The notes below the pieces were generated by a model. The model saw only the letters and a program-made list of their open reading frames with translations. It was not told the origin of the DNA and did no database searches. The translations under genes were made by a program, and so were the position numbers. DNA of 64,000 bases, from contig QPGO01000025.1 in the NCBI GenBank assembly GCA_008632985.1, forward strand, positions 310,001 through 374,000, in the 5' to 3' direction. Every line of letters begins with the position of its first letter. Position 1 is the first letter of the stretch. Below, piece by piece: positions 29,329-64,000 of the stretch. The stretch comes from Psammoneis japonica (lineage: Eukaryota).

Positions 29329-29722
29329 GGTTTTGAGTGGGGCGCCAAAAGCCAACGGGCAGGACAACTGACGCCGTTTCTCTCGACTCTACAAGTAGCA
29401 AGATTCTCCGAGAGCCTCGAGCCTTCTTGTTCCTTGCCTTGTTATGTATGTTGATGCTGCTCTTTTCACAACTTTTGACACGAGAAGAAACCAGAGGGAA
29501 GAGGACAGAATACATACTATTCGTTGGCGAATGTTTTGAATTGTTCATCGTTTATTCCATATTTTTTAAATCATGAAGATACATTTATCGTCAAAATTGA
29601 AATTTTGACTCGGGCTCGCTCGTCGCTCCAGTTCATGGATGTTATGCTGTTTGCTGCCGCAAGCCGCAAGCAAGCATGATGAACAATGATGATTGATGAT
29701 TCTTCATCGCTGCCGTTGAACC

Positions 29723-30927: not shown

Positions 30928-31003
30928 ACTGCAACCCACAATCTACAATAGATTGATTTCCGTTTTGTCACTTTTGAAACTTATGATCATGTTTTTCGGG
31001 CGC

Positions 31004-39337: not shown

Positions 39338-40270
39338 CTATATGGTTGGTCTTGATTGGCGGACGGAAAAGGTACATGCGCACACTACTGTTCTGGCAAC
39401 GGCTTTGGGGGATACTTGCTAGAGTCTAGAGGAGAAGCTGAGAGGACTTCAATGCCAAAGTACCATACAAATACACGGGGACACGGCAGCTACATCGCGA
39501 TAATAGGGGACGATGTTAATGACTAACACTCACAAATACTTCGCATTCTTATTCAATACTTCAATAGCACTCTAACTTTGAGGCTCTCTCTCTCTCCCTT
39601 CACCGTGTTCCCGTTCGTAGCAATCATTGTTCTTTGCTACCTCTTGCGTTGGAACGGTCATTCTTCCTCCGTGCACTAGAGTCGATCGTGAGCATGGCTG
39701 CTCTGACCACGTTATTTGGTGTTGTGCTTCTGTTCTTCAAAAAGGTTTTGTACTGCACCGTAAATCAATGATACCTGTAGTGAAGATCAACGTCGGAAAA
39801 GACGGCTTTGGCCAAGGGCCGCCTCTAGTATCGAGTATATAATACACCAACCGCCTATCTCTAAGGTTCCATGTAAAACGAATGCCTCCAATGTCTTCTT
39901 CTGTCCTTGTCGCAAAACATGAATACGTGCAACATGTACCGGTATACTCTTTTCTTCTTTCTTCTCCTTGCTAATTTGTGAATATGGTACTTCCGTCTTT
40001 ACGTTCCTTGCTCCTAACGAATATAGTCCTTCGTCTACGTCTATTGCCAATCCCTAGATCATTTTGTCTCTCATTCCCTGCTCCAGTTGTCTTTGCTTGG
40101 ATTACCGTGGCCGCACGTCTCCGCAACAATAAGATAGCCGATTGACGCAGTTTTGCCCTGTCAAACACGGCACACAGTGGTGTCAAACACCCTCATGGCG
40201 ATACCATCCTACTCGAGCTTCTGGGCGGGAGAGGATTGGATGATGAGTCGTCGCACTTCTGGAGATGGAC

Positions 40271-41410
40271 GTGGGGGTGGGGACGCTGTACGGCGTTTCC
40301 ATCCTCGTGACTCAGCGTCCCCACGCATCGTCCCCACGTGGGGACGCCGTACGGCCCTACTGTACTGTACGGCGTTTCCTCGTGGCTCAGCGTCCCCACG
40401 CATCGTCCGTCCCCACGTGGGGACGCCGTATGGCCCTAGGGCCCACTGTACAGTACGCACGGCGTTTCCTCGTGGCTCAGCGTCCCCACGTGTGGACGGC
40501 CGGCGTCCCCACTTGGGGACGCCGTACGGCCCTGCTGTACGGCGTTTCCTCGTTGCTCAGCGTCCCCACGCGTGGGGACGGCCGTCGTCCCCACGTGGGG
40601 ACGCCGTATGGCCATAGGGCCCACTGTACGGCGTTTCCTCGTGGCTCAGCGTCCCCACGTGGGGACGGCCGGCGTTACTGTACGGCGTTTCCTCGTTGCT
40701 CAGCGTCCCCACGCGTGGGGACTGCCGTCGTCCCCACGTGGGGACGCAGTGCGGCCATACAGCACTGTACGGCGTTTCCTCGTGGCTCCGCGTCCCCACG
40801 CATCGTCCCCACGTGGGGACGGACGCCGTGCGGCCCTGCTGTACGGCGTTTCCTCGTGGCTCAGCGTCCCCACGCATCGTCCCCAGGTGGGGAAGGCCGT
40901 CCCCACGTGGGGACGCCGTACGGCCCTACTGTACGGCGTTTCGTACGCGCGGCGTTTCCTGCTCGTGGCTCAGCCAGCGTCGCGTCCCCACGCGTGGGGA
41001 CGGCGTCCGAACGAATCGTCCCCACCCCCAGGCAGGGCGGGTCCCCACGGCCCTAGACTATGTACAGTACGGCGTTTCCTCGTGGCTCAGCGTCCCCACA
41101 CGCGTGGGGACGGCGTCCCCACGAATCGTCCCCACGTGGGGACGGCCGTCCCCACGTGGAAACGCCGTATATATACGGCCTTACAGTTCTTGCTTACAGT
41201 ACTGTATGTACGGCGTTTCCTCGTGGCTCAGCGTCCCCACGCCGTCCCCACGTACGATATGTGGGGACGGCCTGCAGCACGGCGTTTCCTGCGCTGTGCG
41301 GCGTTTCCTCGTGGCTCAGCGTCCCCACGCACGTCCCAACACGTCCCTGGGGACGCCGTACGGCCCTTCAGCACGGCGTATCCCGCCCTGTAGCTCAGCG
41401 TCCCGCGGGA
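40271..41410. repeat. GC-rich irregular tandem array of palindromic modules
   Basis: About 14 copies of CGGCGTTTCC(TCGTGGCTCAGCGTCCCCACG) interleaved with the perfect palindrome GTCCCCACGTGGGGAC and with CCGTACGG. Confidence 0.95.
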
Positions 41411-41900
41411 ACCACCACTCCAGCCAACTGGGAGGCACTACAAAAACGAGAAATTCTACGCAGAATTTGCCTAGCCACCATGGCGAATTCGCGTCGCGTC
41501 CACCGTCGATGTCACCGTTTTCCACGAGGTGACTCACGCGGGACATTGTCGTTATTTGTCTATACAGTGGCACCATAACGTGTTGGCTCGATTTTGACAA
41601 GTGCCACTCTGCACTCTGCGCAAGAAAATCGATTTCGATTCGTGTGAGTCTGCTGCTGCTGTTGTCGTCGTTCCGGTGTGTTTCGTCGAGTTTGTTATTA
41701 TTTCCCTCCTCTCATCCCTTGACCTTTGCCTCATTCGTTTCATAATAAATGTGGGTAAAGGTCGCGGATGTGTGGGGCACCTTTGGAGTGTTTGAGACGA
41801 GCTCTGGACGTCGCGGCTCGTGGTTGGTGTGTTTCCAACAGACGTTAGCGGTCCGGCACTTATTCTGTTTGTTTCTCGGTCCACAAGCAGATTCTTCCCC
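41400..41900 (+). mobile_element. Repeat-family segment adjoining the array; a decayed homologue lies at ~43710-43950 plus ~48510-48690
   Basis: Shared sequences include cagaatt.gc..agccaccat.gc.aatt.gc, gattttgacaagtgcc, gcaagaaaatcgattt and tttgag.c.agctctgga.gtcgcggctc. Confidence 0.65.
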
Positions 41901-41904
41901 ACAA

Positions 41905-43070
41905 AAGGGCCTCACATTTTACTTTGTCAAACACATTGCTGATACAAGCAGTGGAGTTTGTTGAGCACACATACAGGGATTTTGGGTTCTCTGGCAAACT
42001 ACGTAGCATTGCAGGAAGTTTCTTTCGTCACGCTGGGACAAAGGGTTTTGACAAGACCTCTCTGCATCCGCTTACATTGTGGACACCCTGATCTGTCTGA
42101 CAATCTTTTTTCATTGCTCATGGTGGCATCAGCAAGAGCTGAAAAGGTGTCAATCTCTCCAAGGACATCTTTGCGGGTTACATCAACGGAATTCATGGTG
42201 GATCAGTTGTTTTCAAGGAATGGAAAAAGGCCGGGACGTTGGAATGAACCAAATCTATAAGCATGAGCCTAAACTCAGTTAAGGTGCGGTGGAGCAAAGT
42301 CTTTCCCGGGACCTTTACCGATTGGGACATCGTTTGGATTTTTGCCGTTTACTTTCTTACTGCTGCTACGGTGGAATCGGCCACTAGCTAGTTTTCAAAC
42401 GTGGGAAAAGGCCGGGACGTTGGAATGAGCCAATCTATTAAGCATGAGGCTAAACTCAGTCAAGGTGTGGTGGCGCAAAGTCTTTCCCGGGACCTTTACC
42501 GATTGGGACATCGTTTGGATTTTTGCCGTTTACTTTCTTACTGCTGCTACGGTGGAATCGGCCACTAGCTAGTTTTCAAACGTGCTTACAATTCCGACGG
42601 TGTACCTGGTGGTCTACCTTGTGGTTGTGCTGGCAACATTTGATTTGGAGAAGATTGGTGACATCACTCCTGTGGGAACTATTCAGATGCTGTTGGGAGG
42701 GCTTGGACTTCTATAGACCTTTCCTCATTTTGCAACGCTTGGCTTTGAAAGAGGTTGGTGGCAGAGTTTTCGAGAGATCTTCCACGCATTCATAACAGGC
42801 GGACCGCTTCACTTCATATTCCACATCTAGACCAAGGCAAACTGCATGTTGCAAACTATTCTATTCTTGTCGGAGGTGCAAAGCAGCGTGCGACTGGCCG
42901 GGGTTTCGTTACTCAGCGCACTCCATTTGATGAGCAGTGTCGATATTTTGCATCTAGTCACCTTTACCTCGGAATCGAGCTGGTGTCTTTTCACAGTTTT
43001 ATCATAATTCTCTGACACCAGGCTTAGCTCTTTGTTTGTTCTGTCGTCTTTCGGACCTCCTTTTGACAAG
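41905..43070 (+). pseudogene. 1,3-beta-glucan (callose/FKS-type, GT48) synthase internal fragment with a ~181-bp tandem duplication
   Basis: QEVSFVTLGQRVLTRPLCIRLHCGHPD, KGRDVGMNQI, LSRDLYRLGHRLDF and GGAKQRATGRGFV motifs, with stops and frameshifts. 42223-42403 is duplicated at 42404-42584. Confidence 0.88.
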
Positions 43071-43950: not shown

Positions 43951-46900
43951 TGCAGTGTGCGACTGTTATATACATATTTATGATTATATGTTATTTATAT
44001 GTCAATCGTACCACAGTCGTGGATGCGTGCAAAGGACAGAACGATCACACAGAGTTGATCGGATGTCGAGAATTGCAAATACGATCGATTGACGATGTTG
44101 ACATCTTACGTGTCAATAGCAATCGTATCCGGACAATCTGTTGTCACGAATATATTCTCCGAAAGGCCTTTTGTCTGTAGAAGCAGCACAGAAGCTTTAG
44201 GCCATTGAGAACTCGTTCGGAGAAACCAAAAATCACAGAGCAAAATTTAATCTCATAATTTCCACTTTTCGTACACTATTCTACTTTCGTTTACACTCGT
44301 TCTTCGAGCATAGTGCATTGTGTATACACACCACAGAAGGTAAAAAGCACGGAAAATGAAAATTTTAACTAATGTGCCTTTGCAAATTCTTCTGTGAACA
44401 GGAACGAATCGCATCAGTTCTGCTGGAATCGATTTCCGAGCGGAAGAAGCTCAAGCCGAGCAGCACCTCAAGATGGAACGCTGTTTTTCGTCTACCAGAC
44501 AAGAGGATTCGCTCTAATACGGTCTATTCCAAGCACCCAAGGATCAAGGGCTCTCAAGCACACCGCATTGTCAAAAAATCTACACCAAGTCATGGTTGCA
44601 GAGAATGCAAGTTCCGAGTCGATCAGATCCGAGAAATGCGTCTACCATGCAAGGAGAGACTGTTGGAGAGTTTTTTGAGACCGAATCGATGATCCTCGAG
44701 TCCAAGAGCAAGATGGAACCGTTGGAAAGTACCTCAAGAGTCTCACATCTCATGTCTTTCCAAGAATTGCACTTCAGAATCAGAGTTGTCATTTTCAAGA
44801 CGATCTGAAGAAACCAGAGCTGCTTGACAGCAAGAAAGCCTCTGTTAGACCCAAGAGGTCAATGATGAGAGTCTGTGCGACCCTCAGATGGATTCTAAGT
44901 CGAATCTAGCGGGAAACCGAGCGCTGATTTATCAGCTGTCACTCGCACCGCAAGGATGGCAGCATCAGCCTACTGTCCAAAACATTGAACTACTGGATCA
45001 TGCCCTTGACGAGCTGATTGAGGTTTGAGTCGTCTAGAGGTCGGCGAGGACGTCTGTGACAAAAAAACACATCAATTCAGGCTCTGATAGCGCAGTTGAT
45101 TCCACAATCAAAAAGGTTCCAATTTTGGTTCCAAAAATGGTCTCCTGTGTGGTGCCACCACAATCCAAAGTGAATGAAAGGTCCAATCTTTGAAAAAAGA
45201 ATACCCACATCACGGATTAAAGCCATTCTGAAAATGAACCAGCGAAAGAGTGCAAGGGTGGCTCTAAAAGAGACCCAAAAATACGACGCTCTAAATGGCA
45301 ATCGCACGCGAACGTGACGAGAGCAGAAATGCCTCTGTGAAAGAGGAGTTGAACTGAACTATGAACTGGGCAGTTCACAAAAACAATTAAAGCGAGTTCC
45401 TCGACAAAGGAACGTAAAAATAAGAGCGAAAATTAAGACTCTAAAACGCTTAACAAATGAAACTATCAATTTAGAAAAATTGACCTGATCGAGTCCGATC
45501 AAAAATTTAAACCGCTCAAGGAGTGTAACGCATTACAGGACGTCTGGAAACCCAGAAAAAGCATCACAGCATGTCACACGAGTCCTGTTCTCGCTGTCTA
45601 TATGACTGCTTCTCTGAGAAAAGAAAAAAATAAGCTTCTGCGTGTTCTCTCGATAAAGAACATCGTCAGCCCATGATTTTACGCAAAATCGTGCGAAGGT
45701 TGAGAACCAAAATATCCGCCACCAAAAAAACTTGAGAAACCAAGGGTGAGCTCTTTACGACTGACAGCAAACACCGAATTCAGTTCTCACTACGCGAATT
45801 TAAGACTTGCTGACATTCAAACAGCATGTGTCAATGACACCAAACACCCTTCAAGGTCGAATGATGTGATCATGGGACGCGACTTAATGTCCAGTCCTGC
45901 AAGTCACATTGGACTACGCAAATGAAGAAATCTAATGGGAAGAAGCAATTACCTTATGAAGAATGTTCATACACTCTTCGATGCCGATGTTTTCAAGCTG
46001 AAAACCGATCACATGAAAAATGTGACGCCGTGAATAGAGTCAACAACGGAACCAATGGTCCTCGACTCACATTGTCACGCCATCGATCCTAATCAAGTGA
46101 CAACTACGGCGATGCATCTAACCCAAATGAACACAACCAACTCAATCTTCTTCTTAAGAGGTTGAAATCTTTTTGAAAAGTTCCTCAGACGAATGCATGG
46201 GAAGAACCAGTGGATCTCATCGTGGAAAATCTGACGCGATTCCACGACGCGTGAGAACCTTCTCCTATCATAGTCTTTGGAGGCGTCCAATCAAAAGGAA
46301 TTTGACCTATTATGAAAGATTGAAGTTTTAAAAATGAAATTGCGATTCAATCATGGAACACCACGATGTAAAATCAAAAAGCACACGTCGTGCTCACATC
46401 AGAATAATGCCGTGGGGGAAAATGAGTGCTATAGACTTCCGATGAGAATCTATAGAGCCCCATATATTTTCATACAACGCATGAGCGAACTCATGGCAGG
46501 TTTGGAGTTGTCAGAACGACTAAGAATGAACATTTGCACCTGACAGAAAATAACTTCAAAATGTCACCTGTACAAGAAAAACTTGAAACGGCATTCATAC
46601 GACTAGAACAGTCGCTTTGAAGGTTAACAAACAAAAGTCCTTCACTACTTAACTTGAAAAAAATTATCAAGACTTCCATGCGTAACGGCACACATCCGAT
46701 TACAAAGAAAATGGAGGCGATTCAAGCAATCGCAACACGAGAAAAACGTAAAGAACACTACGACATCTCGTTGTCATACGTTGCTATTATCGAGACATGT
46801 AGTCTCAACGATCTCCTGTACAATACTAGCCAAATTCACCTCAATAAAGGTCAAACGGCAAAAGTACAAGTACGGAACGAAAAGTCTCGGAAAATATGGA

Positions 46901-48506
46901 GCGTATCAAATCAAAAACTATATTGTTATCATACACGGATTTCAATATTATACGTTACAACGGAAAAAAGAACTTCTGTCCATAGTGAAAACACTTATAA
47001 AATTCCGAAATATACTGTTTGGCCAACAGATTTATACATATACGGATCATAAGACACAACGGACAAAGTCATACGTTGACAACTTCAGTCCCGAATTAGA
47101 ATACAACGAGGGCAAGGCGAACATCGTCGCGATAGACGCGATCAGCCGACTTACTATAGAAAATTGAATCCTACGACAATGTCCTACCGTTAAAACGGGA
47201 TAAAGACATTCCCTCCAAATTGTCGGACGCGACATATCATACGAACACTTTTCGTGGAGGCGAGCGAGATCGAAAAATGCTCATGTCACAAGGATAAAAT
47301 CGCCTTTTTAAAGGACGATTTAGGAAAAAACAGTGACAGATTGGTATACATTATACGTATCCACTTCACACTGGCAAAAGACAATCTCACAACACCCGTA
47401 CGGTTGTATTGTACAATGTACGAGGCAAGACATTAAAATATACATCATGTCGACACACGAGATGTGCCAAAGATCTAGAAAAAGAAAAGAAAAATGGACA
47501 TTTATCCACTTAGTGCACGAAACCAGTGCCTTCGGAATGACAAAATAACACCGGTATGTCAGAAAGAAACGTCCAAATAACGATTAAAATCCAACTGATA
47601 GATGGTTGAAGTACAAAAAAAAAAAATCCATAATGGAATTCATAACCATCACAGGATTGATTATCAAGACGAAATGGTCATAATATCTTTGACCATCGTT
47701 TATTATTACTTATGAAACGTGGTAGTGCAGCAGAGCAATATGGCATATAAAGTAAGCCCGCCAAACTACATGAAATCCACAAGTAAGTAAGTGAACGCCA
47801 TAATTAAGAGCGTACATTAAGTACTGGGCACGATGCTATGTACAATCGATATCAGGAAAAACACTTACTCCAGGACAATTAGTCCTTGTGTTCATATCAA
47901 CAAGAACGTCAATGAGAATACTCGACGTAATACTATATATATACATATTAAGTGAGAAACAAACAATGTCACTCTCAAAAGACATTCGGAAATTGGAACG
48001 GCCCTATATTGCCTATACAAAACAACAACAGTCATTGCTAATGGCACAATACAGTGAAAGTGGAGACATTATTGACACTGTCGATGTCCGTCGAATAATC
48101 CACTTACAAATGACTCTAATGTGCAATTAGGGAGGCGAATGCAGTATGCGACTGTTATATACATATTTATGATTATATATTATTTATATGTCAATCGTAC
48201 CACAGTCGTGGATGCGTACAAAGGACAGAACGATCACACAGAGTTGATCGGATGTCGAGAATTGCAAATACGATCGATTGACGATGTTGACATCTTACGT
48301 GTCAATAGCAATCGTATCCGGACAATCTGTTGTCACGAATATATTCTCCGAAAGGCCTTTTGTCTGTAGAAGCAGCACAGAAGCTTTGGGCCATTGAGAA
48401 CTCGTTCGGAGAAACCAAAAATCACAGAGCAAAATTTAATCTCACAATTTCCACTTTTCGTGCACTGTTCTACTTTCGTTTACACTCGTTCTTCGAGCAT
48501 AGTGCA
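43951..48506 (+). mobile_element. Ty3/Gypsy LTR retrotransposon, non-autonomous (internally decayed)
   Basis: 367-bp LTRs at 43951-44317 and 48140-48506 (TG...CA), 4-bp TSD CATG and PPT AGGGAGGCGAA. Internal remnants DVIMGRDLM (~45863), FRNILFGQQIYTYTDHK and LEYNEGKANIVA.DAISRL (Gypsy RNase H). Confidence 0.92.
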
Positions 48507-48699: not shown

Positions 48700-51600
48700 C
48701 AGCCTCATGCTTTGGTTTTGAACATGTTGATGCATGATGCAAAAGAACTGGATTTTGTGGAGGTTGTCTCAGGGAAACACAGTTGGGAGCTCAATGAGCT
48801 GCAACTGCAATGCAGGGTTGCACTTTTGGTTAGATTTTTCAATTGTCAAGAGCACCACACCCATTGCTTGGGAGGTCGTTCTCAGCAATGCTGAATCATG
48901 AAAGACAATTCTTGCAATTGGATTGTTGTGGGACCTTGCATGGGAGGCAAGTCCTTCATGATTCACTTCATGCTTTCACAACCAGCTCATGAGTCACAGA
49001 GTTGCACTTTCATGGGGGCGGTTCATGATGGCTCTCTTCACAGTCAAGATGAGAGAACCTTCTAGTCATTTGAATGCACGGTCCTTTGTCTGTGCAGGAA
49101 ACACCCTGCACTCTGTGAGCAAGCTTGTTGGCAGTCAGGATCACATGGCGGATGGTGGCGATGCTCATGTTTGACCTTTGACCTTTTGACCTTGTGTGCT
49201 GTGCATGGGTCACAGGAACTTCAACCTCAGTTTAGTCCAATGGGTCAAAAGCATGGTTTTTCATGCCAGGCACTTGGTTTGTCCCTTGCTCTGCAACCCA
49301 CAAACAGCAGTCTCTCAAACAACACCTTTGCAGTCAACTTTGATTCTGTCAAACCCTTCAGTTGCATGCCACAGTTTTAGACCAATTGACCATCAACCCA
49401 AACTGCCAGACACCATTGGTTGTCACACAGCTGGCAGGGCTTGCACTCTGTTGGCCCAAAAGCACAATGATGAGAGTGTGGCCTTTTTGTTGCCGGGGGG
49501 CAGCTGCTGCACCACTGGAGTTGTCAACACACACCTGCGTTTGTTGCTCTTTGAACCCAAAGGATGTTTCCACTGTGTGAAGCTGGCAAGCACCCTCTTT
49601 TTGGAAGTCCAAACATTTTTGTTGTTAGAGCAAGGTGTCTTTTCTCTCATGCACCACCCCGAGCACTCTTGCAAATGTGCTGCTTGACTTTGCCATCAGC
49701 ACTGCTGTGCTCCTCTGTGGCAGTGGTCTCAGCAGGCCCGAGAATGGAGCTTGGGAAGCTCTTGCTGCTTGTGATTCAGAGGTTGGGACTCAAATCTCTC
49801 AAATCCCTCAAATCCTGTGCCAAAACAATTGCTTCAGTGCTGGGTGGCATCCTCTCCCATGGTTGCCATGATCATCTGTGTGGCAGGCATCTCTGCTGAC
49901 TGGCTGGCCCTCATGCTCTTCTTTGGGTGTTAAAAGCTTGTGACTGGTGCACATGCCGCCTTCTTTTTTGGCCCTCTCTTGGCATGTTTCCTTGCTTTCT
50001 TTTGCAGCCAATGCCAGCAGCACAAGCAGCAAGCTTTTGCAAAACCCACAAGCCTTTCTGCTGGAATCTCTTTTGCACTTCCTTCCAGCCAGCTCATCCA
50101 GCATTGGTCATCTGCTTCTTCTTCTTCTTCCAGGGCTTCTCATGTGGTTCCCACCTTTGGTGCCTCCATTTTGCCCTTCAAGGATGTCTTGGGTGGCTCA
50201 GCTTCTTTTCACCCCACTCCTTGCTGCAATTGTGGCTTTTTTTGTTGCTGGCAGGGGCACCCAGCAGCTTTCTTTTTCTCTTGCCAAAAATCTGGCAAGA
50301 GAGGCACAAGACCTTTGCTCTTGCCCTCTTGTTCCTCTGTCATGGGGGGGGGTGGGGGGCATGTCTCAGCAGAATGGCAGCCCTGCTGTGCTTGGTGCCT
50401 GCAGTGTTTTTTCTTCTCTTGTGCTCCAATCTGCAGAGCCCATGCACAGACCTGTGCCAGAGCATCTGTGTGGCACCAAGGGGGGTCCCACAGTGAGCAC
50501 CTCATGCTGCTTCAGCTCCGAGGACCACACACTTTTTTTTTTCACCACATGAAAAGAGCTGTGAAAATCAGAGTTTGTTTCAAAAGCAAATTGAGTTGTT
50601 TGGAGTCAGCACGATGAGATCTTTGATTCTGAAGTGTGACAAGAAGTTGGATTGCATGCACAAACAGAAATGTTTTTGGCTGTGTGTTGCAGATCTCAAG
50701 CAGGCCTGCAAGGTCCATGCAGCCCAGTTTGCCACCAGTGACTGTCAGAGTTGAGCATGCATTGCCCCTGCCCCCGCCCCCCTTTGGCCCCTTTGGAAAG
50801 CATGTGTGGGTCCATCTTTGTCTTTCCTGGGTGCATGGCACAAAAAAGCAAAAAAGCAAGCAGAGGCAGTGTGTGGTCCAAAAGCATGCCTGCAGTGCTT
50901 TCCAAAGCTCTGGTGTGTGACTTGCAAAATCACTGCAAATTCTGTGCAAATGGCTTCTGTTGGGAAATGCACACCAAACCCAGTCTGATGATGGCAAATT
51001 TGTCATTGAAAACTTTGACGCTGGCAAAAGAATCACTTGGAGACAAAATGAGCAGCACTTTCCTTGCCCAGCTTGCTTTTTCAAGACAAGTTGGTTGGCA
51101 AAGGGATGTCTGCTGAAGCCCCATTTTCCCACGTTGTGTCACACAAACAACACGCTGACAGTTCAGAAATTGAAGCTTTTGAAAATGCACCAAAAAAGCC
51201 ATCACCACCACTCAAATTTTCATGAAAAAGCAAGCAAGCAAAGTCCCTTTGTTTTGTCATGATTTTAGAGATTCCTTTGTTGACTGTCAGAGCAAGTCTG
51301 AGAGTTGCATGGGAGAGGTGTGACATGCAACAACTTTCTTCAGCAGACTTTGGATGATTTCTGGGGGTGAAGTGTTGGAGCTCATGTGCCACTCTCTCTC
51401 AGATGCTGTGGATCCCAGCAGCAGCTGTGGCTGGAAATGCCCAAAAAGAATTGTGCCATGCTCCAGCATCTGGTGGAACAAGTGAGCAGCAACAAAGGTG
51501 TTGCAGATGACAGCTTGCACGCAAACTTTCAGCCACAAAGGCAAAACTTGAGTCCACACAGCGGGGAACAATGCAAGCATCTCCAAAATCCAAATGTCAT

Positions 51601-53260
51601 GAGAAGGACTTGTTGCACAAAATGCTTGAAAGTGAAACACAGTGTGCCCACAAGAGCCAGCTGTCATTGCCAGGGTGCAAGAGCTCTTGCTGGCTGCTGG
51701 GATTTCATGGTTTGCCGGCTGGCACATGCTCAGTCTTGCCAATCCCCACACTCACCAAATGGATTGCAAGCACACATTTCTGTTGCCCCGCTGCTGCTGT
51801 CACCATGTCAACTGGGTGCACAAGCAAAAAAGTGAGCACAAGAGACACAATTTGACAGGAGCTCTAAATGCAAATTCACCACATCATCTCAACAATCATC
51901 GTTGCATCCTTTGCTGCAATGTTGTCTGTCTGTCCCATGAAAACCACCTTGTGCCACAATGTTCCAACACACTTCATTGCATGAGCCACAAATTGCAAAT
52001 TGACTGGCCTCATGTGTGCCAACCAGGAGGGCAACACTTGGAAACCATGACACCCAGCACCACTTCAACTGCTCTGCCAACTCCTGCCATTGCACCTGCA
52101 TCATCTGACTCTGCTGACAAATGACCATCATCATCATTGAGCAAAGGACAGCCCTTTTTCACATGCCCAACCTTGCCACATTTCAAGCATTTGATCTGCT
52201 TTTCTCATTTTGTGCAAAGCTTGTGCTCTCAGGTTTCTTGTTAGACCAGCATGTGTCCAACACCTGCAGCACCTCCTCAGCCAAATTGGAGCAATTGCAA
52301 GCAAAGAGCACAAACTGCCAGTGCTGGTCTTTCAAGATGTGCTGTCAATCCTTGGTGCCTTCCATTGGCAGCACTGCCAACAACTTGTTTCTTTTGTTCT
52401 TCCAGGTGTCATGTCAGCATCCTTGCCAAACCCATCTTCTTTCTTGACAATTTCTTCCAGGATGAGTCTGCCATGGGACCTTTCTGCCATCTCAACAATG
52501 CTCATGAGCCAACTGCAATGATTTTGAAGTGCCCCTCCCTCATCTCCTGATGAATGAGTGCCAGCTGCTTTCAAGCCTCAACTGCCTGGGCATGTGAGCA
52601 GATTCCCTCATTTGCATCAAGCAAGATTGACTTGAGATTTTCCAACAACAGTGCTGCCACATCCCACTCCTTTGTGACTCTCTCAAACTCTGTCACTCCT
52701 TTGACCTCATGACAGACAGCCTTCGTGCACTGTCCCATGATTGTGCCAAATGCATTTGCCTTCTGTGTCTTGTAGATTGCACCCTGTTTCATGTGGCGAT
52801 CTCATTGCTTCTCCCAGATTGCCTTGTCCTTCTCCAATGCAGCGTCACGTGTCACCCAATGGATGCTCCAGCTCCTCCAGTTTGTTCTCCTGCCTCAGAG
52901 ACATGGGTGCCTGAATCTCCAGCCTGAAAGTTCTTCCAAGACACTCACTTGTTTTCTCATTGTCTCTGTGTGACACCACCTGCCTGTCAATCCAACTCTG
53001 CAATGGCATCATGTGCCAACTCCTTCAAATCTTTCATGCTTCCACACTCAGTTGCATCCTTGCCCATGTTTCCGGTCAACACAACCTTGCCATGCCCTCT
53101 TTCAGCAGACCCTTGAGAGCTTCCTTGCAACAAGCCCCCCTCCCGAGTTTGTCTCTTTGCCTTCATCCAGCCAGATTGTTTGCCACAATCTGCTGACATG
53201 AGCTGCACCTTTGGACTCTTCTTGATGACTTCCCAGTCCACATTTTTACCTTTTTTGTTG
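48700..53260 (-). mobile_element. Old, heavily mutated Copia-like relic
   Basis: Gag-like ANAFGTIMGQCTKAV...VTKEWDVAALL at 52571-52792 and a faint RT-like segment (ETSFGFK...VCVDN) near 49550. No LTRs were recognised. Confidence 0.45.
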
Positions 53261-54109
53261 GGATTTCATGGCCCAATAAAAACATGACTGCCCATGCCAC
53301 AATTCATGACAGAGAAGGTGTGTGGCCCACAGCATGCTGCACTCAATGGCCAGCATCTTGAAATGTTTGGCAACACACCTGCTGCTCTGCAGCAACACTT
53401 TCTTGCAAAGGAACAGTCACAGAAAATCCCTTCATCCTGGCACAAGCTCCAGTGCCAGCCATCACCATCAAGTTGAAGCAAAAGCATCTTTTGCCATTTT
53501 TGCTCCTGCACATCCTTCTTCATGAAGAAATTTTCAGGGAGCTGGGAGACTCTGGCCATCTCAGGTGTCTCTCTTTTCTCTCTTTTTTGCTCTGGGTGCT
53601 TTTAAATCTGTCATTGTCTCATTTTGCACAAGCAGGCAAGCACCACAACAGGTAAGATGCCATCTCTTTCAAGCTTCTGTTGCAGTGTTCAATCAAAGCA
53701 GGCTGCCTTGCTTTTCCCTGCTGCGCCCTCATGTGTCATCAAAGTCACTCACTGCCCTGCTTGGTCTCTCTGCACATCTGGAAAACATTGTGGCTCTTGT
53801 TGTTCAGAGCTCATTTGTGCTGAACAAAAGAACCCCAGGTTCTTGGCAAGTGCTTGTCAATTGTGAACAAAGCAAATTTGACAATTGTTTTTACACTCCA
53901 AGTGAGAAAATGTGCTCAAGAATCTGCAGGTCTCATTGCTCATTTGATCTTGACAAGATCACAGCCACAATGATTTTGACACAACTTGGTTCATGTCCAC
54001 AACCAAACAAACATGTGAAGCAGGAAATGACAACTGATGAAACTTGTGACTTGCAATTGATTGTTCTTGACAAGGGTGCAATTGTGGCTCCTTTCTGACA
54101 CTGTGCAGC

Positions 54110-55520
54110 ATGCATGCAGACAAAAGGTTATTTTGTCACGCCCTTTGTGACATTTGAAGGCTGTGGCACGTCGCCGTGATGCATCAACTCTCATCAGCAG
54201 CTGGTGCGTGATGGCTTGATTCGCACGATCCACAATGCGAACGCACGATCGATCCAATGCGATCCAAATGCAAGCGAATGGGGATTTGGCAAGATTTCCT
54301 GTTCGCACGATCCCATTTTCTCTGCTCTAAACTGGCCCACAATTTTCACAACGACAAAGTCGCAACACATCTTCTTTTTCAGCGCCTGGCACATGCGTGG
54401 GGCACAGTGATGTTGCTGTGCCCTGTGTGTGCGCTGGGCGCTGAAAAAGAAGATGTGTTGCGACTTTGTCGTTGTGAAAATTGTGAGCCAGTTTAGAGCA
54501 GAGAAAATGGGATCGTGCGAACAGGAAATCTTGCCAAATCCCCATTCGCTTGCNATTTGGATCGCATTGGGTCGATCGTGCGTTCGCATTGTGGATCGTG
54601 CGAATCAGGCCATCACGCGCCATGCTGCATTTAAAGGCTGCAACACGTCGCCGTGATGCACCAACTCTCACCAGTGGCTGTGTGTTGCACTCCTCCCCAT
54701 GCACCACGCGTCCATGCAGCTCTTTGCTGACGTGCACTGACACTGCATGGTTTTGGCGGAACAGTGTGGGTGCGTGCGAAGGAACACACAGAACTGCACA
54801 GAGTTTTGCGCGCATGCAAAGGGCGTGACAAAACAACCTTTTGTCTGCATGCACACTGCGTTGTGAATTCACAGCGGAGTGGTTCATCTCGCAACCACCA
54901 GGCAGGAGGCCAGGGGTTCGAAACCCTGAGTGGGAGTTGTCTGCAGCAACGTTGATCACTGTCGAACGCGCAAAACTCTGTGCAGTTCTGTGTGTTCCTT
55001 CGCATGCACCCACACTGTTCCGCCAAAACCGTGCAGTGTCAGCACACGTTAGTAAAGAGCCGCATGGACGCGTGACACATGGGGAGGAGTGCAACACACA
55101 GCTGCCAACAAGAGCCAATGTATCACGGCGACGTGTTGCAGCCTTTAAATGTCACAAAGGGCGTGACAAAAACAACCTTTTGTCTGCATGCATGCTGCAC
55201 TGTGAATTCACAGCGGAGTGGTTCATCGCAACCATCAGGCAGGAGGCCAGGGGTTCGAAACCCTGAGTGGGAGTTGTCTGCAGCAACGTTGATCACTGTC
55301 GAACGCGCAAAACTCTGTGCAGTTCTGTGTGTTCCTTCGCACGCACCCACACTGTTCCGCCAAAACCGTGCAGTGTCAGCACACGTTAGTAAAGAGCCGC
55401 ATGGACGCGTGACACATGGGGAGGAGTGCAACACACAGCTGCTGATGAGAGCCAATGCATCACGGCGACGTGTTGCAGCCTTTAAATGTCACAAAGGGCA
55501 CGACAAAACAACCTTTTGTC
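54110..55520. repeat. Nested inverted and tandem repeat complex: spacerless ~420-bp palindrome (54202-54622), second inverted repeat (~54628-54812 vs ~54967-55152) and ~338-bp tandem units
   Basis: The arms are reverse complements around 54411/54412. caaagggc..gacaaaa recurs at ~54817, 55155 and 55493. One N at 54554. Confidence 0.9.
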
Positions 55521-57649
55521 AGTGGCTGTGTGTTGCAACTGCTCATTTCTGACAGTGACAACATTCATTTGTCTCATTGGGGTGCTCTCACATTGGCTGT
55601 GTGCTGCTTGCAATGTGATTTGTGCTGGCTGTGTTTGATCATTTCCACAGTGAATGTGTCTTTGCTTCCTGGTGTTTCCTGCTCTTCCCTCCCTGGCTTT
55701 GTCCTGTCTCCTGCCAGCGCTCCCATGCCACAGTCATTCTCTGTCTTCAGATGGTGCATGGTGTGATGTTTTGCTCCTCACTGCATGGTCCCTTGCAACC
55801 CCTCTTGCTCACCACAACGAAGTCATTCATTCCATGTTGTGACCTTGTCCCTTTTGCTTGTCGTGCCAGTTTGCCAAAGCATCACCTGCAAAGAAGAGAG
55901 AGCCAGCAACAGATCAGTGCATTGTGTGTGTGTGTTTTGCTTCACAAATGGGCTTGGCGCAAATGGCGTTTCTGTTCGCCCTTGTGTGCGACCTTGTCTC
56001 TTTCATTTTTCATGCCAGTTTGCCAAAGCGTTGCCTGCAAATGAGAAAAAAGAGAAAAGAGCATGCAACAGATGAGAGCACAAGCCATGTGCACTGGCAC
56101 AAAAGTTGCGCAGAATTTTTGCGCAGAAAAATCACAAAAATCAGGGTTTGGGCCAATTTTTTTATGCTTCTGTTGTGCTTCTCCACTCCACTGACTCCTC
56201 AAGGAACCTTTTTCCCCTGAAACCATCGACACTTCACATGATGGCTTTTGCATGAGTGACATGATTCCAAGCACTGACATGTTCCGTTCTCAGAATTTTG
56301 ATCAACACCTCATCATGGGCCAACTGTGGTGAGCACCATCCAACAATGGAGTTTTGCTGAATGATGGACATCACCATGTTTGTCATGAAAAAGCAGGTGT
56401 GCAAAGCATCAGCCACTGCAACTGAAATTGATTCCTTGAGGTCATGGCCTGTTTTTTGCAAAGCATGGGAAAAGCACAATGAACAAGATGTTCTACATGA
56501 ATTTTCTGCGTGAGTTTTGTGCCAGAAATTGGCCCAAACCCTTTTTTCAGAGCTTGTGCCCCCTGCACATGGCTTGTTGCATGTGTTTTGTTTTGAACGT
56601 GCTTGGCACAAACGCTGTTTTGCTGCTCTCACCTTTGCAGCCATGGTTCCTGCAGGGCCATCTTCTCTTCTTGCTCCCCTCAAATGTCGACATGTGTTTG
56701 AGTGGAAAGATTGGCAAAAGGTCGGTTGTTTGCACTGTTGCCCAAGCTCTGCACACTTGCCAACTCAGTTCCTGTCTCTCTCTCACCTTGTGTCCCACAT
56801 TGTCCCCCCCCCCTCTGCTCTTCTGTGCCTTCCCTTGTGCTGCTGTCATTGTCATGATGTTGGATGAGCCCTGTGTTTTGTGTTTTGTGAGGCAATGATG
56901 ATTTGTGCTTTTGTGGCAATGTTGAGCCTGTCTGCTTGGTGATTCCTGTCAGCATCTTTTTTTAAGTGAAAATTTTGTTTTAAAATTCCACGCTCACCCT
57001 CAGTTTTGAAGGTTTGGACAATTTGAAATGACTTGAATGAATCATTCAGTCATCAAGGATTTGCATGTGTGCCTGCAGTCAGTCAATTTCTCATTTTTTG
57101 TTGGCACATTAATGTGCTCCTGTTAAGATGGAAATTTTTACAGTGTTGCTGCCACACAACATCTTTTTTCAATGCTCTGGAACTTCAATCTCTTCACAAC
57201 CTGCTTGACACCCAACAACCACATGTTTTTTGGTGTGTTGCAACAACGCTGCCAAAAAACATGTGAGCTGCCCCTGTGGAGGCAGTGGCAGCCATCCTTG
57301 TGCTGCCAACCACTCCAAAGCCGGCAGTGCTCTTGGCCATGGTGATGAATGCAGGTGGGAGCAGCACATCTCAAGCTTGACCTCAGCCACAAGAGCACAG
57401 CAGGAGGAGCCCTTGGAGAAACCAAGGCTCTGTTGCCAGAGCTGCTGCAGCACCAGCTCACAACCCAGCAACTTCTGCCGCTGCTGCCGCTGCTGCTGCC
57501 TCCATCAACAACAAAGCCACAGCCCACCATGCCAACACAGCCAATGACCCTCACTCTCCAGCCATCCCACCCACCAAGGATCTTGAATTTCTCATGCATT
57601 GGCACAAAATTTCCGTGGTTGTTGTTGCATCCCCTGGCACCCAATGGAG

Positions 57650-58470
57650 TCTCCCACAGCCATCCAAAGACAACTGAGCACTTGCGCTGTCACACAGATG
57701 GCTCCCCAGTCTCTGCAGGGGTGTGGTGGCTGGTCCAAAGCCAGCCATGTCAGAAAGAAAAGGGGCTGTGCATTGACACAAGACAAGGCCTTCTCTCTCC
57801 AACCAAAGTTGTTGTTGGCTCCTCAGGGGCACAATGGAGTCACCCAAGGCCATCTAAAGACAACTGGGCACTTGCATCGTTGTCACACAGAAAGCTCCCT
57901 TGTCTCTGCAGGTGGGGTGGCTGTGCCAAAGCCAGTCATGTCAGAAAGAAAAGGGGCTGTGTCAACACAAGGCAAGGCTTTTGATCCCCAACCATGGTTG
58001 TTGCTGGCTCCCCTGGGGCACAATGAAGTCACTCAAGGCCATCCAAAGACAGCTGGGCACTTGCACTGTCACACAAATGGTTCCCTTGTCTCTGCAGGTT
58101 GGCTGGCTGCTGGCTGGGCAAAAGCCATTCATGTCAGAAAGAAAAGGGGCTGCGTTGGCACAATTCCAAGACAATGGCACACCTCCTTTGCCACATGTGT
58201 GGGCCTGATGCTTCCACACCTTGTGCAGCTGGGCATCTTCCTGTTTGTGGAGCCACACAAGGGGCTGCTGCTGCTCAGCAAGACAAGACTTGCGCTGACC
58301 AATTGCTGCAGTTTGCATGTCTCCAAGGCTCAACTGGAGTCCACCAATGCTGTCCCCCCCAAGACAACTGCACACCTCCTTTGCCACATCTGTGGGCCTC
58401 ATGCTTCCACACCTTCTGCAGCTGTGCATCTTTTTGTTTGTGGAGGAATCACACAAGGGGCTGCTGCAGC
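57650..58470 (+). repeat. Degenerate tandem repeats (~190-bp period, 3 copies) followed by a second short duplication
   Basis: catgtcagaaagaaaaggggctg occurs at ~57746, 57937 and 58130. cacacctcctttgccacat.tgtgggcct.atgcttccacacctt occurs at ~58178 and 58371. Confidence 0.8.
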
Positions 58471-59869
58471 CCAAGACAAGGCTTGCAGCTTCCCAAATCA
58501 AGAGTGCAAAGATGCCACAATTGGACCAACCCACTCAGCAGCTGCAAACTGAGTGCATTTGGAGTGCATGTTGTGCAGGCAGCAACTCAAATCAACATGC
58601 ATTGATGGCAACAATGATGATCTGGCTCTGCATTTGGCAAAAAAAATGTTTGCTGGGACATGGGGACACCACCACATGCTCTGTTTTAGTTTCTCAAGCA
58701 GCGCCGGCATCTGCACTGTCCACCATCCACACATCAAGCCTGTTGCTCCAATCTGAGACACCAAGACATGTCATCAAACTCACCACCAGAAGGTTGACTG
58801 CCAAATTCCATGAGTGGTGCATCTGCCAGAGTGGGGTTGCCAACATCTTGGAGAGACATGGCCAAGTTGCCCGCCGCTGGCTTTGTGGCACTGCAATTGT
58901 TGCCATCATCCAGTGTTGTCTGCAGCTCATTGCATGGTGCACAAGACATCCCTCACCCATCAACAACAATGCCAACATCACCACCCACCCTGCCATTGTT
59001 CACAAAGCTGCCAACCTGCTTGCAGGACAGGTGTGCTCAAGGGTGAAACCAAGGGTGACAAAGCCAACCAAGTTGTGTCATTTCACACAGTGGCAAGTTT
59101 TTGGATTCTGGTTGCCTCCAGCCAAAATGGGGCACAGCAATGGCAGATCCAGGACATTTGCATTCACTGGTCAGCAGGAGCCACACATGCTTCATGAGCT
59201 TCATCACCTGAATTAGAAAGTTCTGCCTCTTCTTGGGCAATCCCAAACCAGACTCCACATGATTTGTTGGGTTGCCGGAGCACCCCCACTCAGCATGCTG
59301 AACAATTGCAGAAGCTGTGTTTTGTCAGGGGTGACATCGACAATCCACAAGAACTTGGGCCACATTGATCAATTGAACATGAAGTGAACCTTTTGGAACA
59401 GAGAATGCATGGCCAATGGAGTGTGGCCATTGTTTTCATTTGTGATGGTGACAGGGAAGATGAAACACTTTTCCCAGTCTCTGTCATCTGGTGATGGCTT
59501 TCCAAGCAGTGGCGCCATTGCTTGCTTCATGCCTTGGTCAGTTTCTTTGGCAACCACAGCAAAAACCTGAGCAACTCTTCCTGCTGTTCCCCCAGTGCTT
59601 CTCTTCCTGCAGCACTGGAAACATGTGCTTGCCAAAGAACTTGTCAGGGTTCAGGCCCAAATGGAACAATGAAGAACACTGCCATTGAAAATGTCAGCAG
59701 AGAGCATGCTTGTCATCATCATTGTTGTTGTTGTTGTTGTCAGGAAGACATCCAGCCAGGACTGAGTGGACTGCAGCAAGAGCGTGCCATTGTTGTTGGT
59801 GGATGTTAGATCAGAGAGGATGAGTTGTGCAGTGTTCAACAGGAAAAAGGACAAATGCAGCAGAAACAG

Positions 59870-61430
59870 AGCAAAACAAAGGCAGACAGCTGACAAATGG
59901 AAGGAAAATGGAACAAATGAAGCTGTTCTTGAGAAGTTTAAAATGAGGACAAAATGAGCCACACAGGCAACATGAACAAAGGCAGAGATCTGACAAATGC
60001 AGGGAAAAGGGAACAAGCAAAGCTGTTCTCAACAAGTTTAAAATGAGGACAAAATGAGCCACACAGGTGACTCAACAAGATGCTTTTGGGCCACATCTGT
60101 GGGGCCATTTTGCTGTGAATTTTTACAAAAATGCTCACAACCCACAAAATCAATTTTTCTTCTTTCCAAAATGCAGACACGCAACGCAACTCAAGTCAAC
60201 CATGGATCGGTTGCAACGGTGGCAACATTTGGCACCAAGTGCAAGAAACTCCTGGAGAGCATGTTAGAACCTCATTGTGATCACTGATCACAAGGTGTGG
60301 GTCCCAGAGAAAGGCATCTTTGCCCAATGCTCCCAATCATCATCTGAGCTTTTCACTGACTTTCTTTCTTTTTTCTGCATCCAACATGACAGCAAATGTT
60401 TTAAAGATCTGAAGTGGAATGTGTTGTGCAGGTGCCCATGACTTGGACAAAATGCGTTCAACCAAGATGATGCAGAAAGAGGCACAAGCTCATTTTTTTG
60501 CAGTGTTTTCATTGTCAAAAACACAAAAGCAAGTGCAGCAATCCTTGCTTGTCATGATCAATTTCAACAATCAAATTGACTCAATGTCTGTGCAGTCAAA
60601 CTGTCCAAAGTTTCAATCAATGGCTCAAATGCCCCCTTCTGTGACTGAGTGAGACAATCTTGGGCAGTCATCAGGTGTCAAAAATCCATGCAAAGTTCCT
60701 GAGAAGCCGCAAGCAGTTGGACCTTGGGCCCTGTGAATGTGCCAGCTCTTCTGACCAAATCAACTCACAGCACTGCTTAAATTGTTCACTTTGTCTGCAA
60801 AGAGGCATTTTCAAGTGGTCAATTTTTCTAAGATTGGGGTCAAACTGCAGAAAATGCCATTGGCAACAGGCAAATGATGATTGCTGGCCAGAACCCTTCT
60901 GTCAGACACCCATTTTTTTCATTTTGCATGCACAGAATGATGCACAGTTTGTCAACAACACAGATTGAACACCCCGCAATGGTCCAGGAAGCATCTGCCC
61001 CCACACAGAAGGATGCAAAACATGAGCAACAGCAAGAGTCAACAAGCACAGTCAGCGCCATTTAATTGCTGAAGTTGATTTGATCCAGGACTTGGTGAGT
61101 GTGCAGGCAGCTCTCTCTGCTGGGCTCCAAGCAACAGAAATCATTGCTGCGACAATGAAGACAGCTTTGTGAAAGAGCAATTTGACAGAGTGGCACAGAC
61201 TGGTGCTGTCAACAGCCAATTGTGACTGGGAGCTGTGTGCCATGACCTCAAGGAGATGCAACATGCCACAACAGATTCAACCAGCAAAATCTGGCATGCA
61301 AAGAAAACTTTCATGCAAGCCACACAGGCAACTTGAACAAAGGCAGAGAGATCTGACAAATGGAGGGGAAAAAACCAAACAAAGCTGTTCTTGTCAAGTT
61401 TAAAATGTGGGCAGAATGAGCCACACAGAG
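59870..61430 (+). repeat. ~100-bp unit in tandem at 59870-60070 with a third copy at ~61320-61430
   Basis: aagctgttct...aagtttaaaatg.gg.ca.aatgagccacacag occurs three times. Confidence 0.75.
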
Positions 61431-64000
61431 GCACAACTTAAGAAACAAGCAAGAAAGATTCAACCATTCATGACTTGCAAGCTGTCAAGAAACAAAATCA
61501 ATGTCAGTGCAAATTGACGATCTGTGAATGTGATCAGCACAAATGTGAAAATTCAATTGTTGATGAGTGACTCTCTGGCCAAGCACGGAAACATGTCACA
61601 GACGCAGCTGGAGCACTTTTTTGGCTCTTTCTCTTTGTTTTGCAGCTCCCCCCACCTCATGTTTGGCAAGCAAACAACACATTGTCCCCTGGGTTTGGAG
61701 CTTGAGCGTTGTTGTGGACAGAGCCATTTCTTGTTTTGTCATGTCAGGCAAGACCCCCCCCCCCTGCTCAAGTGTTCTTCTGAAGATGCCACCTCCATGG
61801 TGACCCCAAAGAGCTTGTCTCACTGGTGCTTGCAGAGATGCCATGCTCTGCTGCACATGTTTGCTCCTCCACTGCTTGCAGTTTTTGCACAAGGAGCCTC
61901 CACAACTTGGTTGATGACTTGGGGCTCAGCACCTTGAAAAAACTCACCTTGAAGAAGAAAACAAGCACTCCTTTTGTTTTTTTTGGTTGCCCCCTAAGAT
62001 TTTTTGTTGCTTGTTTTTGAACAAATCCATTCACAATCACCGTGTGGCAGTTGCAGAGCACACAACCACACAACAGACTGCCAGAGAAAACAACAACAAC
62101 AACGCATGCACCACACAGCAGGTCCGTCCAGGCTTTGAGAAGGCAGACACTGTGCAGAAAACATGTTGGCTCTGGTGCCTTCTGGGGTGCATTGCAAAGA
62201 TGCTGCTTTGTTCTCAAAGGTGCTTGGTGTGTTTTTTCTCTGTTCCCAAAAAAGAGGGCCAGAAATGAAAAAAAGGTGCTTGCTTTTTGGGCTGGTTTTT
62301 GCAAGGCATTTTCAAAGGTGCAAGCACAGCATTGTTGCACTTTTGCACAAAATGTGCAGTGTGCAGCAGCTGCCAGCTGTTTTGCCAAGTGGCTGAGTCT
62401 TGATTTCCATTGAGTGGGCAGCTTCGCAGGTGGCGCAACCTGTTCTGATGCACAGGTGAAAGACTGGGTGTGGAGTGCAGAGGCATCATCATGCAGACTG
62501 CTTGCACAGGATGGCATGGGCTGCAACTCTCAACAGTGCATGATGTGTGGCCAAGTTGCAACTGGGCTCCCTCACCAGTTTGATGGAAGAGGGAGAGCTG
62601 GCCAGCTTTGCTGTGGAGGAAACTGCTTGGGTGTCTGGGCGGCCCTTGCAAGGTGCCAGTTTGCCCAGAAAGCTGTCCTCGTCAATGAAAAATGTGCACA
62701 CTGGACCCAAAGAATGCCTGGGTTCTGTGGCATGCAGCTGGCAAGCCCCCCCAGGTTCCAAAACAGAGTTGTGAGACATTGCAGCTTTGCCAGTGCTTGC
62801 AGAGAACCTCAACTTCAAAAGAAGTTGCTCTGAGCCACTCACCAGCATCTTTCCGCTGAGATCACAGCACAATGTTGCTTTGTTCAAGGCAAGAAATGAC
62901 AGAAAAATTTTGGCAGAGTGCTGATCCTGTGCCTGTGGAGTCCACATGAGCTGCAACAGCCACAATGGTGGCACCACAGCCAAGGGCAACAAGGGGTGCA
63001 ACACACTTCAGGCATGCACACCAAGCAGATGGGCAAAACTCCACCAGCTCTTCCAAAGCTGAAATCATTGCCAGAGATGGCATCACAACAAAGGTTTTGG
63101 TGTGAGCCAAATGTTGTCAACAGAGACATCCAGCAGAGTGCCATCAAATGACGGGTGGAAAACAACAAAGAGCAGCAAGGAAACACCAGGAAAACACCCA
63201 CACAACACTTCTGCATTGAGCACTTTTACAATGTTGTTTGTCTTGCCAAGCATGGTGAAAGTGAAATGCTGCTCTCTTCCATTGGACCAGATGAAAGTTG
63301 AATGTCAGCAAAACGTCAGCTTGCCACACACATTGCAAGACTTTCAATGAGTGTCATTTGGGTCAACACAAGGAGTTGGTTGCAAGAAGAGAATTTTGGC
63401 AGGTCCTGTTGGTGCCAGCAGGAGAGTGAGTGAGAGCACAGTTTTTCCAGAAGCCCATGCAAAGGCTGAGCTTCCCTGCCAAGTTGGTCACCAGGTGTGC
63501 TGGCATTTTTGAAAGACCACCATGGTGCAGTTGATTTTTGCTCAAGAGAGCTGTGCACTCATGCACTGGCTCTCTTTCAACTCTTGGGAGAACAAGTGCA
63601 ACAGAACTTTGCATGCCCAGCTGCCCTCTGAAGTGCCCTCTTCAGTGGAAGGACTGCAAAACATTCAAAGAAACAAGATCTTCTTGAGGGTGACATTTCT
63701 TTCTCCATGAGAGGGCACAGATTGAACATGCCTTTTGTGGTGTGCAGGTGTGCAGGCTTTGTCTGTCTTGTGCTTTTTGATTTTTTTGCACATGTCCATG
63801 ACTCAAAATGACCAGACACTGTTGGTTGTCACACAGATGGCAGAGCCAGTGCACTGAACCAAAATGACGGGTCTGTTGCACACACAATTGGCGAGCATCC
63901 CTGGGTTCTAAGTCAGAGCAAAGATTGCCCCACCACACCATTGCCAGCACTCCAAGAAGATGTGATGCTTTGCAATGCCAGCACTGCCATGCTGCACAGC

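Follow-up and report, generated by a model that had tools for sequence, protein, structure and literature searches.

In yeast, fold-back priming at natural inverted repeats of 3–15 bp near a break creates inverted duplications, as described in the accessible text of Al-Zain et al. (2023, PMC10622511), and in yeast Alu palindromes a spacer of at least 9 bp cut breakage by about 80%, according to the accessible part of a second study (PMC8053094). Hypermutation confined to TpA, with A>G/T>C changes, was measured in integrated viral and transposon-like DNA of the alga Bigelowiella natans (Mettrop et al., bioRxiv 10.64898/2026.01.13.699255, accessible part). With these systems a palindrome from another alga, Psammoneis japonica, was compared, which is located at positions 54197–54628 of a 64,000-nucleotide stretch of DNA (GCA_008632985.1, contig QPGO01000025.1, forward-strand positions 310,001 to 374,000); the whole stretch is called the window, and all positions are numbered within it. 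Long inverted arms are also a feature of DNA transposons of the Foldback/MITE (miniature inverted-repeat transposable element) type, of which Tm1, a Mutator/Foldback family, is reportedly an example. The literature searches listed no study of foldback or palindromic repeats from diatoms.

The palindrome is read, with a probability of roughly 0.6, as a functionless fold-back inverted duplication of a ~215-bp piece of non-coding, high-copy repeat, situated in a 1.44-kb mosaic that was inserted into an older repeat depleted in TA and CpG; the two copies would once have been symmetric and would have changed since by transitions only. Self-BLAST of 53900–55700 against the window returned a single inverted self-match (54197–54628, 434 columns, 92.2%, E 4e-178) with its axis between 54411 and 54412, in agreement with a first-pass annotation, made from the sequence alone, that had given a palindrome at 54202–54622 with letters and coordinates as found here. 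The left arm (54197–54411, + strand; self-match, alignment, summed contig depth of 13,000–31,000) is a segment of a high-copy repeat, here named P, and the right arm (54412–54628, − strand; repeat search, BLAST, alignment) is its reverse complement. The repeat search reported the arms as two pairs (54270–54407/54416–54553 and 54202–54269/54555–54622), split at a single N at 54554, which the same annotation had also pointed out. This N, the only one of the window, forms an extra column in the right arm and could reflect either the joining of two contigs or an ambiguous base call; the left arm is unbroken across its mirror point (54269/54270). Within an arm only one 12-nt subrepeat was detected. 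Close-spaced inverted repeats of at least 40 nt were limited in the window to the palindrome and the neighbouring arms of a module termed c, which adjoins it. Folded as single-stranded DNA, 54190–54553 reached −182.6 kcal/mol against −57.0 ± 4.1 kcal/mol for 100 shuffles, with 0 shuffles as stable.

Column-by-column alignment of 54202–54622 gave 15 differences between the arms in addition to the N column, and all 15 were transitions. Their distribution was uneven, with mismatches at 11 of the 25 inner positions against 4 of the 185 outer ones (Fisher p 7e-9), so that the outer arms are alike at 181/185 positions and the diverged centre (54387–54436) holds 11 mismatched pairs of 25. In these central 50 nt, Watson–Crick pairs account for 14/25, whereas 25/25 pairs are symmetric as to purine and pyrimidine; among control 50-mers from the flanking TA-erased island (n = 12,509), the best symmetry was 21/25, reached thrice. 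Because of this 25/25 symmetry the centre is taken to be a formerly perfect, spacerless palindrome that has since been changed by transitions alone, and the spacerless origin proposed by the earlier annotation is upheld. At the axis, an intact 8-bp inverted repeat, GGGCACAG / CTGTGCCC (54400–54407 / 54416–54423), brackets an 8-nt apex, TGATGTTG; its halves, read from the letters, pair in the folds, and the unit (54400–54423) is a possible fold-back priming site.

An axis at which a short inverted repeat encloses a small spacer (8 bp + 8 nt + 8 bp in this case), arms that are near-identical outward and microhomology-like overlaps at the junctions are points in which the locus resembles the yeast fold-back inversions, as far as these are described in the accessible text. 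Unlike theirs, its arms are only ~215 bp long, end at mirror-image points and have one and the same module, directly oriented, on both sides; it lies inside multi-copy repeat DNA rather than being of chromosome scale, and it is seen as a finished sequence, not as a break or an intermediate. With the stabilised yeast palindromes, in the accessible part of that study, it shares an interruption of perfect pairing, here over the central 50 bp, although the yeast spacers were engineered; by analogy, a copy with such an imperfect centre should be tolerated.

Copy number was assessed with four runs from one sample and study, all in the form of assembled contigs, this sample being possibly the source of the assembly. 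Contigs were aligned at a likeness of at least 90%, 19 of 1,963 pieces being listed and 1,906 contigs originating from run X1. Summed contig depth was 8,509–237,670 over 54055–55545 (11,000–42,000 over the palindrome arm), compared with 42–437 for the majority of flank bins, with a maximum of 1,111 on the right. As these depths lie far above those of the flank bins, all modules of the mosaic, including the palindrome arm, are high-copy repeats. Seven joint rows (8 contigs) link 54059–54101 directly to 55538–55564, skipping 1438–1504 bases; since such paralogous copies of the flank repeat lack the whole block, the 1.44-kb block (54101–55539) must have been inserted, either in one piece or as several insertions nested in one another. 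One contig runs on from 54203 with the next letters of c, and c therefore normally has no palindrome at this point.

In the low-coverage runs X2 and X4, the arm continues past 54202 and 54625 into common sequence at similar depth; it thus belongs to some longer repeat unit, and the point at which it ends here does not mark the terminus of the family. That other copies might have longer symmetric arms, an idea prompted by these loose ends, was rejected, as the two ends are mutually reverse complementary and explicable by one single-arm unit. One X2 contig matches 54341–54417, that is, to 6 nt past the centre, with 6 differences and then unrelated letters, so the arm seems to exist also without its mirror partner. 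In one X1 contig, 54638 and 55148 are linked on opposite strands; c modules of another copy thus also meet head to head, at a second joint. On the doubtful hairpin-end reading given further below, such a second joint in other copies would make hairpin intermediates a regular route of rearrangement for the repeat family.

In composition, the palindrome contains 2 TA (observed/expected, o/e, 0.08) and 31 CpG (o/e 1.10), and the 1.44-kb block as a whole has a TA o/e of 0.14 and a CpG o/e of 0.85. The older flanks are depleted in both (TA o/e 0.05, CpG o/e 0.06–0.19), and CA and TG each stand at o/e 1.44 over the whole window. This composition carries the signature of TpA hypermutation: in the palindrome TA is depleted with no matching loss of CpG, and over the window CA and TG are enriched. 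In the outer arms 14/15 CpG sites are intact in both arms. The same process is seen in a young duplicate of the window, the two long terminal repeats (LTRs) of a gypsy element (43951–44317 / 48140–48506), which are 98.1% identical over 367 bp and whose 7/7 differences set TA in one LTR against TG (6) or CA (1) in its partner. When three copies of module c are compared, 22/185 columns vary, all by transitions in each pairwise comparison (22/22, 16/16, 6/6); TA is kept in one or two copies at several sites, and three sites are of CpG type (columns 91, 121 and 147).

The likeness to the Bigelowiella natans process, as reported in the accessible part of that preprint, comprises transitions only, depletion of TA, enrichment of CA and TG, retention of CpG, and young duplicates that differ by TA versus TG/CA. 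It has limits, in that here the process is reconstructed from duplicates rather than observed in mutation-accumulation lines, the organism is another one, the ancestral TA of the palindrome is itself a reconstruction, and 4/15 of the changes lie outside TpA. For a TA-erasing process there is one published precedent, in another alga.

The letters of the centre had been used in the first-pass annotation as independent support for the direction of mutation. It proposed an originally perfect palindrome with an AT-rich apex, TAATATTA, flanked on each side by (TA)5, from which TA was erased later, including double hits from TA to CG. Reversion of G54409, G54412 and G54415 to A in 54405–54418 (CAGTGATGTTGCTG) does yield a perfect 14-mer palindrome, as stated there; the restoration is not unique, however, since changing T54408, T54411 and T54414 to C (TG to CG) gives an equally perfect one, also with three changes. 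Each mismatch is a G·T or A·C pair, for which A:T and G:C are both possible ancestral states, and the centre therefore provides no proof of direction; the 8-nt apex alone has four ancestors consistent with a TpA or CpG context, at three changes each. From two arms that have both decayed, the direction of change cannot be read unless a third, less decayed copy is at hand. Among contigs at least 90% alike, no alternative letter at 10% of depth or more was listed in 54302–54482, and so no TA-bearing copy of the centre; less-mutated centres may exist in more divergent copies, which lie outside this comparison.

Next to the apex, 54390–54399 reads CACATGCGTG and the reverse complement of its partner (54424–54433) reads CGCACACACA. 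Three of the units in these tracts (TG/CA or CA/CA) fit TA and CG ancestry equally, whereas the two that hold CG, CA/CG (54390–91) and CG/CA (54396–97), would cost three changes if derived from TA and one if derived from CG. For the seven sites together, the cost is 15 changes with an all-TA ancestor and 11 with an all-CG one. Double hits from TA to CG found no further footing: CpG was not enriched in alternating pyrimidine–purine (Y-R) runs, in the two erased islands or in the genic control (all Fisher p > 0.6, at low power), with CpG 0/78 against TG+CA 31/2,864 in runs of at least five alternating units (p = 1). Two of the five TA proposed are thus more simply explained as old CpGs. Among the 15 changes, 9 fit TA to TG/CA and equally CG to TG/CA, and 2 more fit TA only via extra hits on the same dinucleotide. 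Despite the non-unique restoration, the local context favours TA ancestry at the centre, because the palindrome is TA-poor and CpG-normal and the LTR pair differs by TA versus TG/CA at 7/7 sites. A mixed ancestor is the preferred reading, with TA at the four TG/CA sites and at the central dinucleotide and CpG at the two CG-holding units.

For the fold-back duplication, the following history would account for these data. At some stage the two copies would have been perfectly symmetric to the centre, and only transitions would have occurred since; the four TG-versus-CA sites and the central TG would derive from the TpA to TpG/CpA process that strips TA from repeat DNA. In a two-step version, the central 50 bp would be a small hairpin native to the repeat unit, which decayed first; fold-back priming or template switching at this hairpin would then have supplied the 190-bp arms at a later time. 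The outer arms show 0 TG/CA-type mismatches among 47 Y-R sites and would therefore have held almost no TA when they were duplicated. For this reason, and because a single-arm copy seemingly passes the axis, the two-step history is slightly preferred over one in which a perfect palindrome came first.

The order proposed in the first-pass annotation, with the palindrome first and central TA erased later, is viable, and that reading as a whole is retained as a possible, if less favoured, account. Besides the three G-to-A changes that restore the 14-mer, it draws on the TA-poor, CpG-normal composition and on the TA-versus-TG/CA differences that dominate young duplicates nearby. It is also favoured by a 53-nt direct repeat of c (54151–54203 / 54628–54680) that flanks the palindrome: its copies are 85% alike, with 8 differences, all transitions, and as 5 of these are of TA type, TA erasure would have continued after the block was assembled. 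Its difficulties are the equally perfect CG restoration, the cost of the CG-holding units, the lack of CpG enrichment in alternating runs and of a listed TA-bearing centre variant, and the want of a reason why TA should have stood in the centre only and not in the arms (0/47 outer Y-R sites).

Several observations weigh against the fold-back duplication in its two-step form. The 5 TA-type differences in the flanking c repeat fit a timing of erasure after the palindrome had formed. Four of the 15 changes are outside a TpA context, one of the four being of CpG type, and the sole TA of each outer arm (54328) was kept, so that the reconstructed central TAs were lost at 13/13 compared with 0/2 (p 0.0095). 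The outer ends of the arms mirror each other within ~3 nt and both adjoin module c in the same orientation, whereas a simple fold-back would be expected to continue the right arm into an inverted flank, with inverted c; mirror-exact ends with direct c flanks would require a second switch or an insertion step. The 6 differences of the single-arm X2 contig have no listed positions, and its match may stop before the apex. A contig bridging the apex with 31 letters on both sides was not present among the 19 pieces listed of 1,963.

The head-to-head junction had previously been compared with that of a foldback or hairpin-ended element or with a template-switch product. Its head-to-head arrangement is borne out, and a fold-back or template-switch origin is a better fit than a transposon copy; the hairpin-ended element is not supported, as no Pfam family was matched by the 15 open reading frames of at least 150 aa at 49–63 kb and the block is an internal insertion.

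The mismatches are also biased by strand. Read on the + strand, 13/15 are G·T and two are A·C (binomial p 0.0074), which means that, irrespective of the ancestor, 13 changes are of the kind caused by deamination of the + strand (A to G or C to T), and they occur in the left as well as the right arm. As RNA, the central 100 nt of the + strand fold into an almost unbroken hairpin of −79.9 kcal/mol, compared with −67.7 kcal/mol for the − strand. The bias is not regional: module c (54628–54812) and its inverted partner (55304–55488) give 5 G·T against 11 A·C (counted by hand). Since both orientations of one sequence are present at a single locus, a palindrome can separate an intrinsic strand bias from one imposed by the locus; here one physical strand carries 13/15. 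It is conceivable, though doubtful, that the palindrome is a replicated hairpin-capped DNA end made inside a high-copy repeat, on which the one-sided changes were written while the + strand was extruded as a hairpin. If true, the TpA-erasing mutator of this alga would act on single-stranded or hairpin DNA, and its choice of strand would be set by the locus (the direction of replication or read-through) and not by the orientation of the repeat. A fold-back palindrome with decay confined to one physical strand would be what is new here, as a modest case. Taken alone, the locus is another stretch of dead repeat DNA that has been rearranged, and its value is that of a small natural experiment on TA erasure.

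The same strand bias, as expected from deamination of one strand, is an argument for a CpG-rich centre in which C-to-T deaminations struck the + strand extruded as a hairpin or cruciform, with no TpA process involved. The lower cost of an all-CG ancestor (11 changes against 15) and the CpG-type differences at columns 91, 121 and 147 of module c agree with it. It is nevertheless considered unlikely: it would require that 11/13 central CpG site-arms were hit against 1/30 outside the centre (p 1.5e-7), the majority of the altered sites would belong to the stem, 12–25 nt away from the loop, and the palindrome overall has no loss of CpG (o/e 1.10).

An ordinary hairpin-shaped transposon copy, of MITE or Foldback/Mutator type and consisting almost wholly of terminal inverted repeat, is improbable to a similar degree. 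Like such elements, the palindrome has long, near-identical inverted arms, no coding capacity and many copies. There is also a 9-bp direct duplication of module c, CAGCAGCTG / CAGTGGCTG (54195–54203 / 55520–55528), which flanks 54204–55519, and 9 bp is the typical length of target duplications of Foldback/Mutator elements. Its copies match at 7/9 positions and differ by CA versus TG, and it may have arisen as a target duplication when a large piece was inserted into an 'a-c' element (a being a further module of the mosaic). No terminal inverted repeats matching this duplication were found for 54204–55519, and in a block-wide search for terminal repeats and target duplications the empty-site contigs were strongly divergent at the junction. 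At the palindrome itself no convincing short target duplication is present, the 53-nt direct repeat of c standing in its place. The ends are not common to other copies (in the one sample, X2 and X4 contigs run past them), one contig carries an arm without its partner, an arm holds only one 12-nt subrepeat, and it is the centre rather than the termini that was retained.

An artefact of assembly or scaffolding, whether from a chimeric fold-back molecule or from faulty joining at the N, is very unlikely. The N lies inside the right arm, repeats of such copy number are hard to assemble, and the listed contigs include none that bridges the apex. A chimera, however, would give identical arms or random errors and not 15 transition-only differences in the biological pattern of the window; moreover, the flanking sequences differ on the two sides, 142 nt of the right arm lie between apex and N, and the left arm runs through the mirror point of the N without a break.

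A functional hairpin-RNA locus, from which small RNAs would silence the repeat family, or the junction of a linear viral or plasmid-like element with hairpin ends has the least to recommend it, for although the + strand RNA hairpin (−79.9 against −67.7 kcal/mol over 100 nt) and the second head-to-head joint of inverted c modules (54638 to 55148, 1 contig) would suit it, Rfam gave only sub-threshold miRNA-type models, 0 Pfam families and no viral or replication gene were seen in 15 open reading frames (ORFs) of at least 150 aa at 49–63 kb (41 of 89 ORFs scanned), and the block is an internal 1.44-kb insertion in an old repeat and not the end of an element. Rfam returned 0 matches in the window at the gathering threshold; at E ≤ 10, generic miRNA-type hairpins over the centre were the only hits (best 42.7 bits against a gathering threshold of 120). 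Searches of metagenome contigs (with centre and arm patterns), viral contigs and prokaryote genomes gave no match.

The order of modules in the mosaic (54099–55539; BLAST, MAFFT) is a, c[1–53], palindrome, c[1–185], an inverted array of a' b c', a' b c' and a'[1–31], and an 18-nt forward piece of c. Adjoining the left arm, a (54099–54150) and c[1–53] (54151–54203) occupy 54099–54203 on the + strand and match 55099–55204 (inverted) and 54628–54680 (direct) by BLAST. The full-length, 185-nt c (54628–54812, +; repeat search, BLAST, alignment) adjoins the right arm. The nested inverted and tandem units beside the palindrome, recorded previously, were recovered by repeat search, TRF and BLAST; the tandem unit, given there as 338 bp, has a period of 337 according to TRF, with 2.1 copies of the inverted [a' b c'] at 54817–55520 (+) and 95% matches. 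The stray 18-nt piece (55520–55537, +; c positions 45–62) is identical to 54672–54689 by sequence comparison. Three inversion junctions thus fall within 1.4 kb (54411/12, 54812–54816 and 55520), and BLAST detected no other copies of the modules within the window. The block would have arrived after CpG decay of its surroundings, because its CpG o/e is 0.85 against 0.06–0.19 in the flanks.

Among the c copies (54628–54812, 54967–55151 and 55304–55488), runs of adjacent transitions beyond strict TpA were noted, for example CCAA versus TTGG (TCAA in the fourth, partial copy) and CAC versus TGT, which points to A>G/T>C changes as collateral hits on letters that adjoin TpA sites. Module b (54860–54966 and 55205–55303) contains GGTTCGAAACC, which we take to resemble a pol III B box, with an A-box-like stretch ~40 nt upstream. 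A tRNA-derived short interspersed element was rejected for b, since ARAGORN predicted 0 genes and, even with the limit relaxed to E ≤ 10, no tRNA model of Rfam was matched.

Over the wider window, TA-erased blocks (1–6000, 14001–16000 and 50001–64000; TA o/e 0.01–0.10, CpG mostly low) alternate with genic DNA (as at 28–41 kb, TA o/e 0.45–0.91) that encodes ordinary Pfam domains. The GC-richest stretch of the window (0.60), at 40001–42000, contains several overlapping long frames on the + strand, one of which was scanned and gave no Pfam match. In addition to the ordinary genes and the gypsy element, the window holds a copia-type pol: a 1000-aa stop-free frame at 6978–9980 (− strand) with copia-type RVT_2, gag-pre-integrase and SH3-like domains, the DNA of which has a TA o/e of 0.15–0.18 and near-normal CpG.

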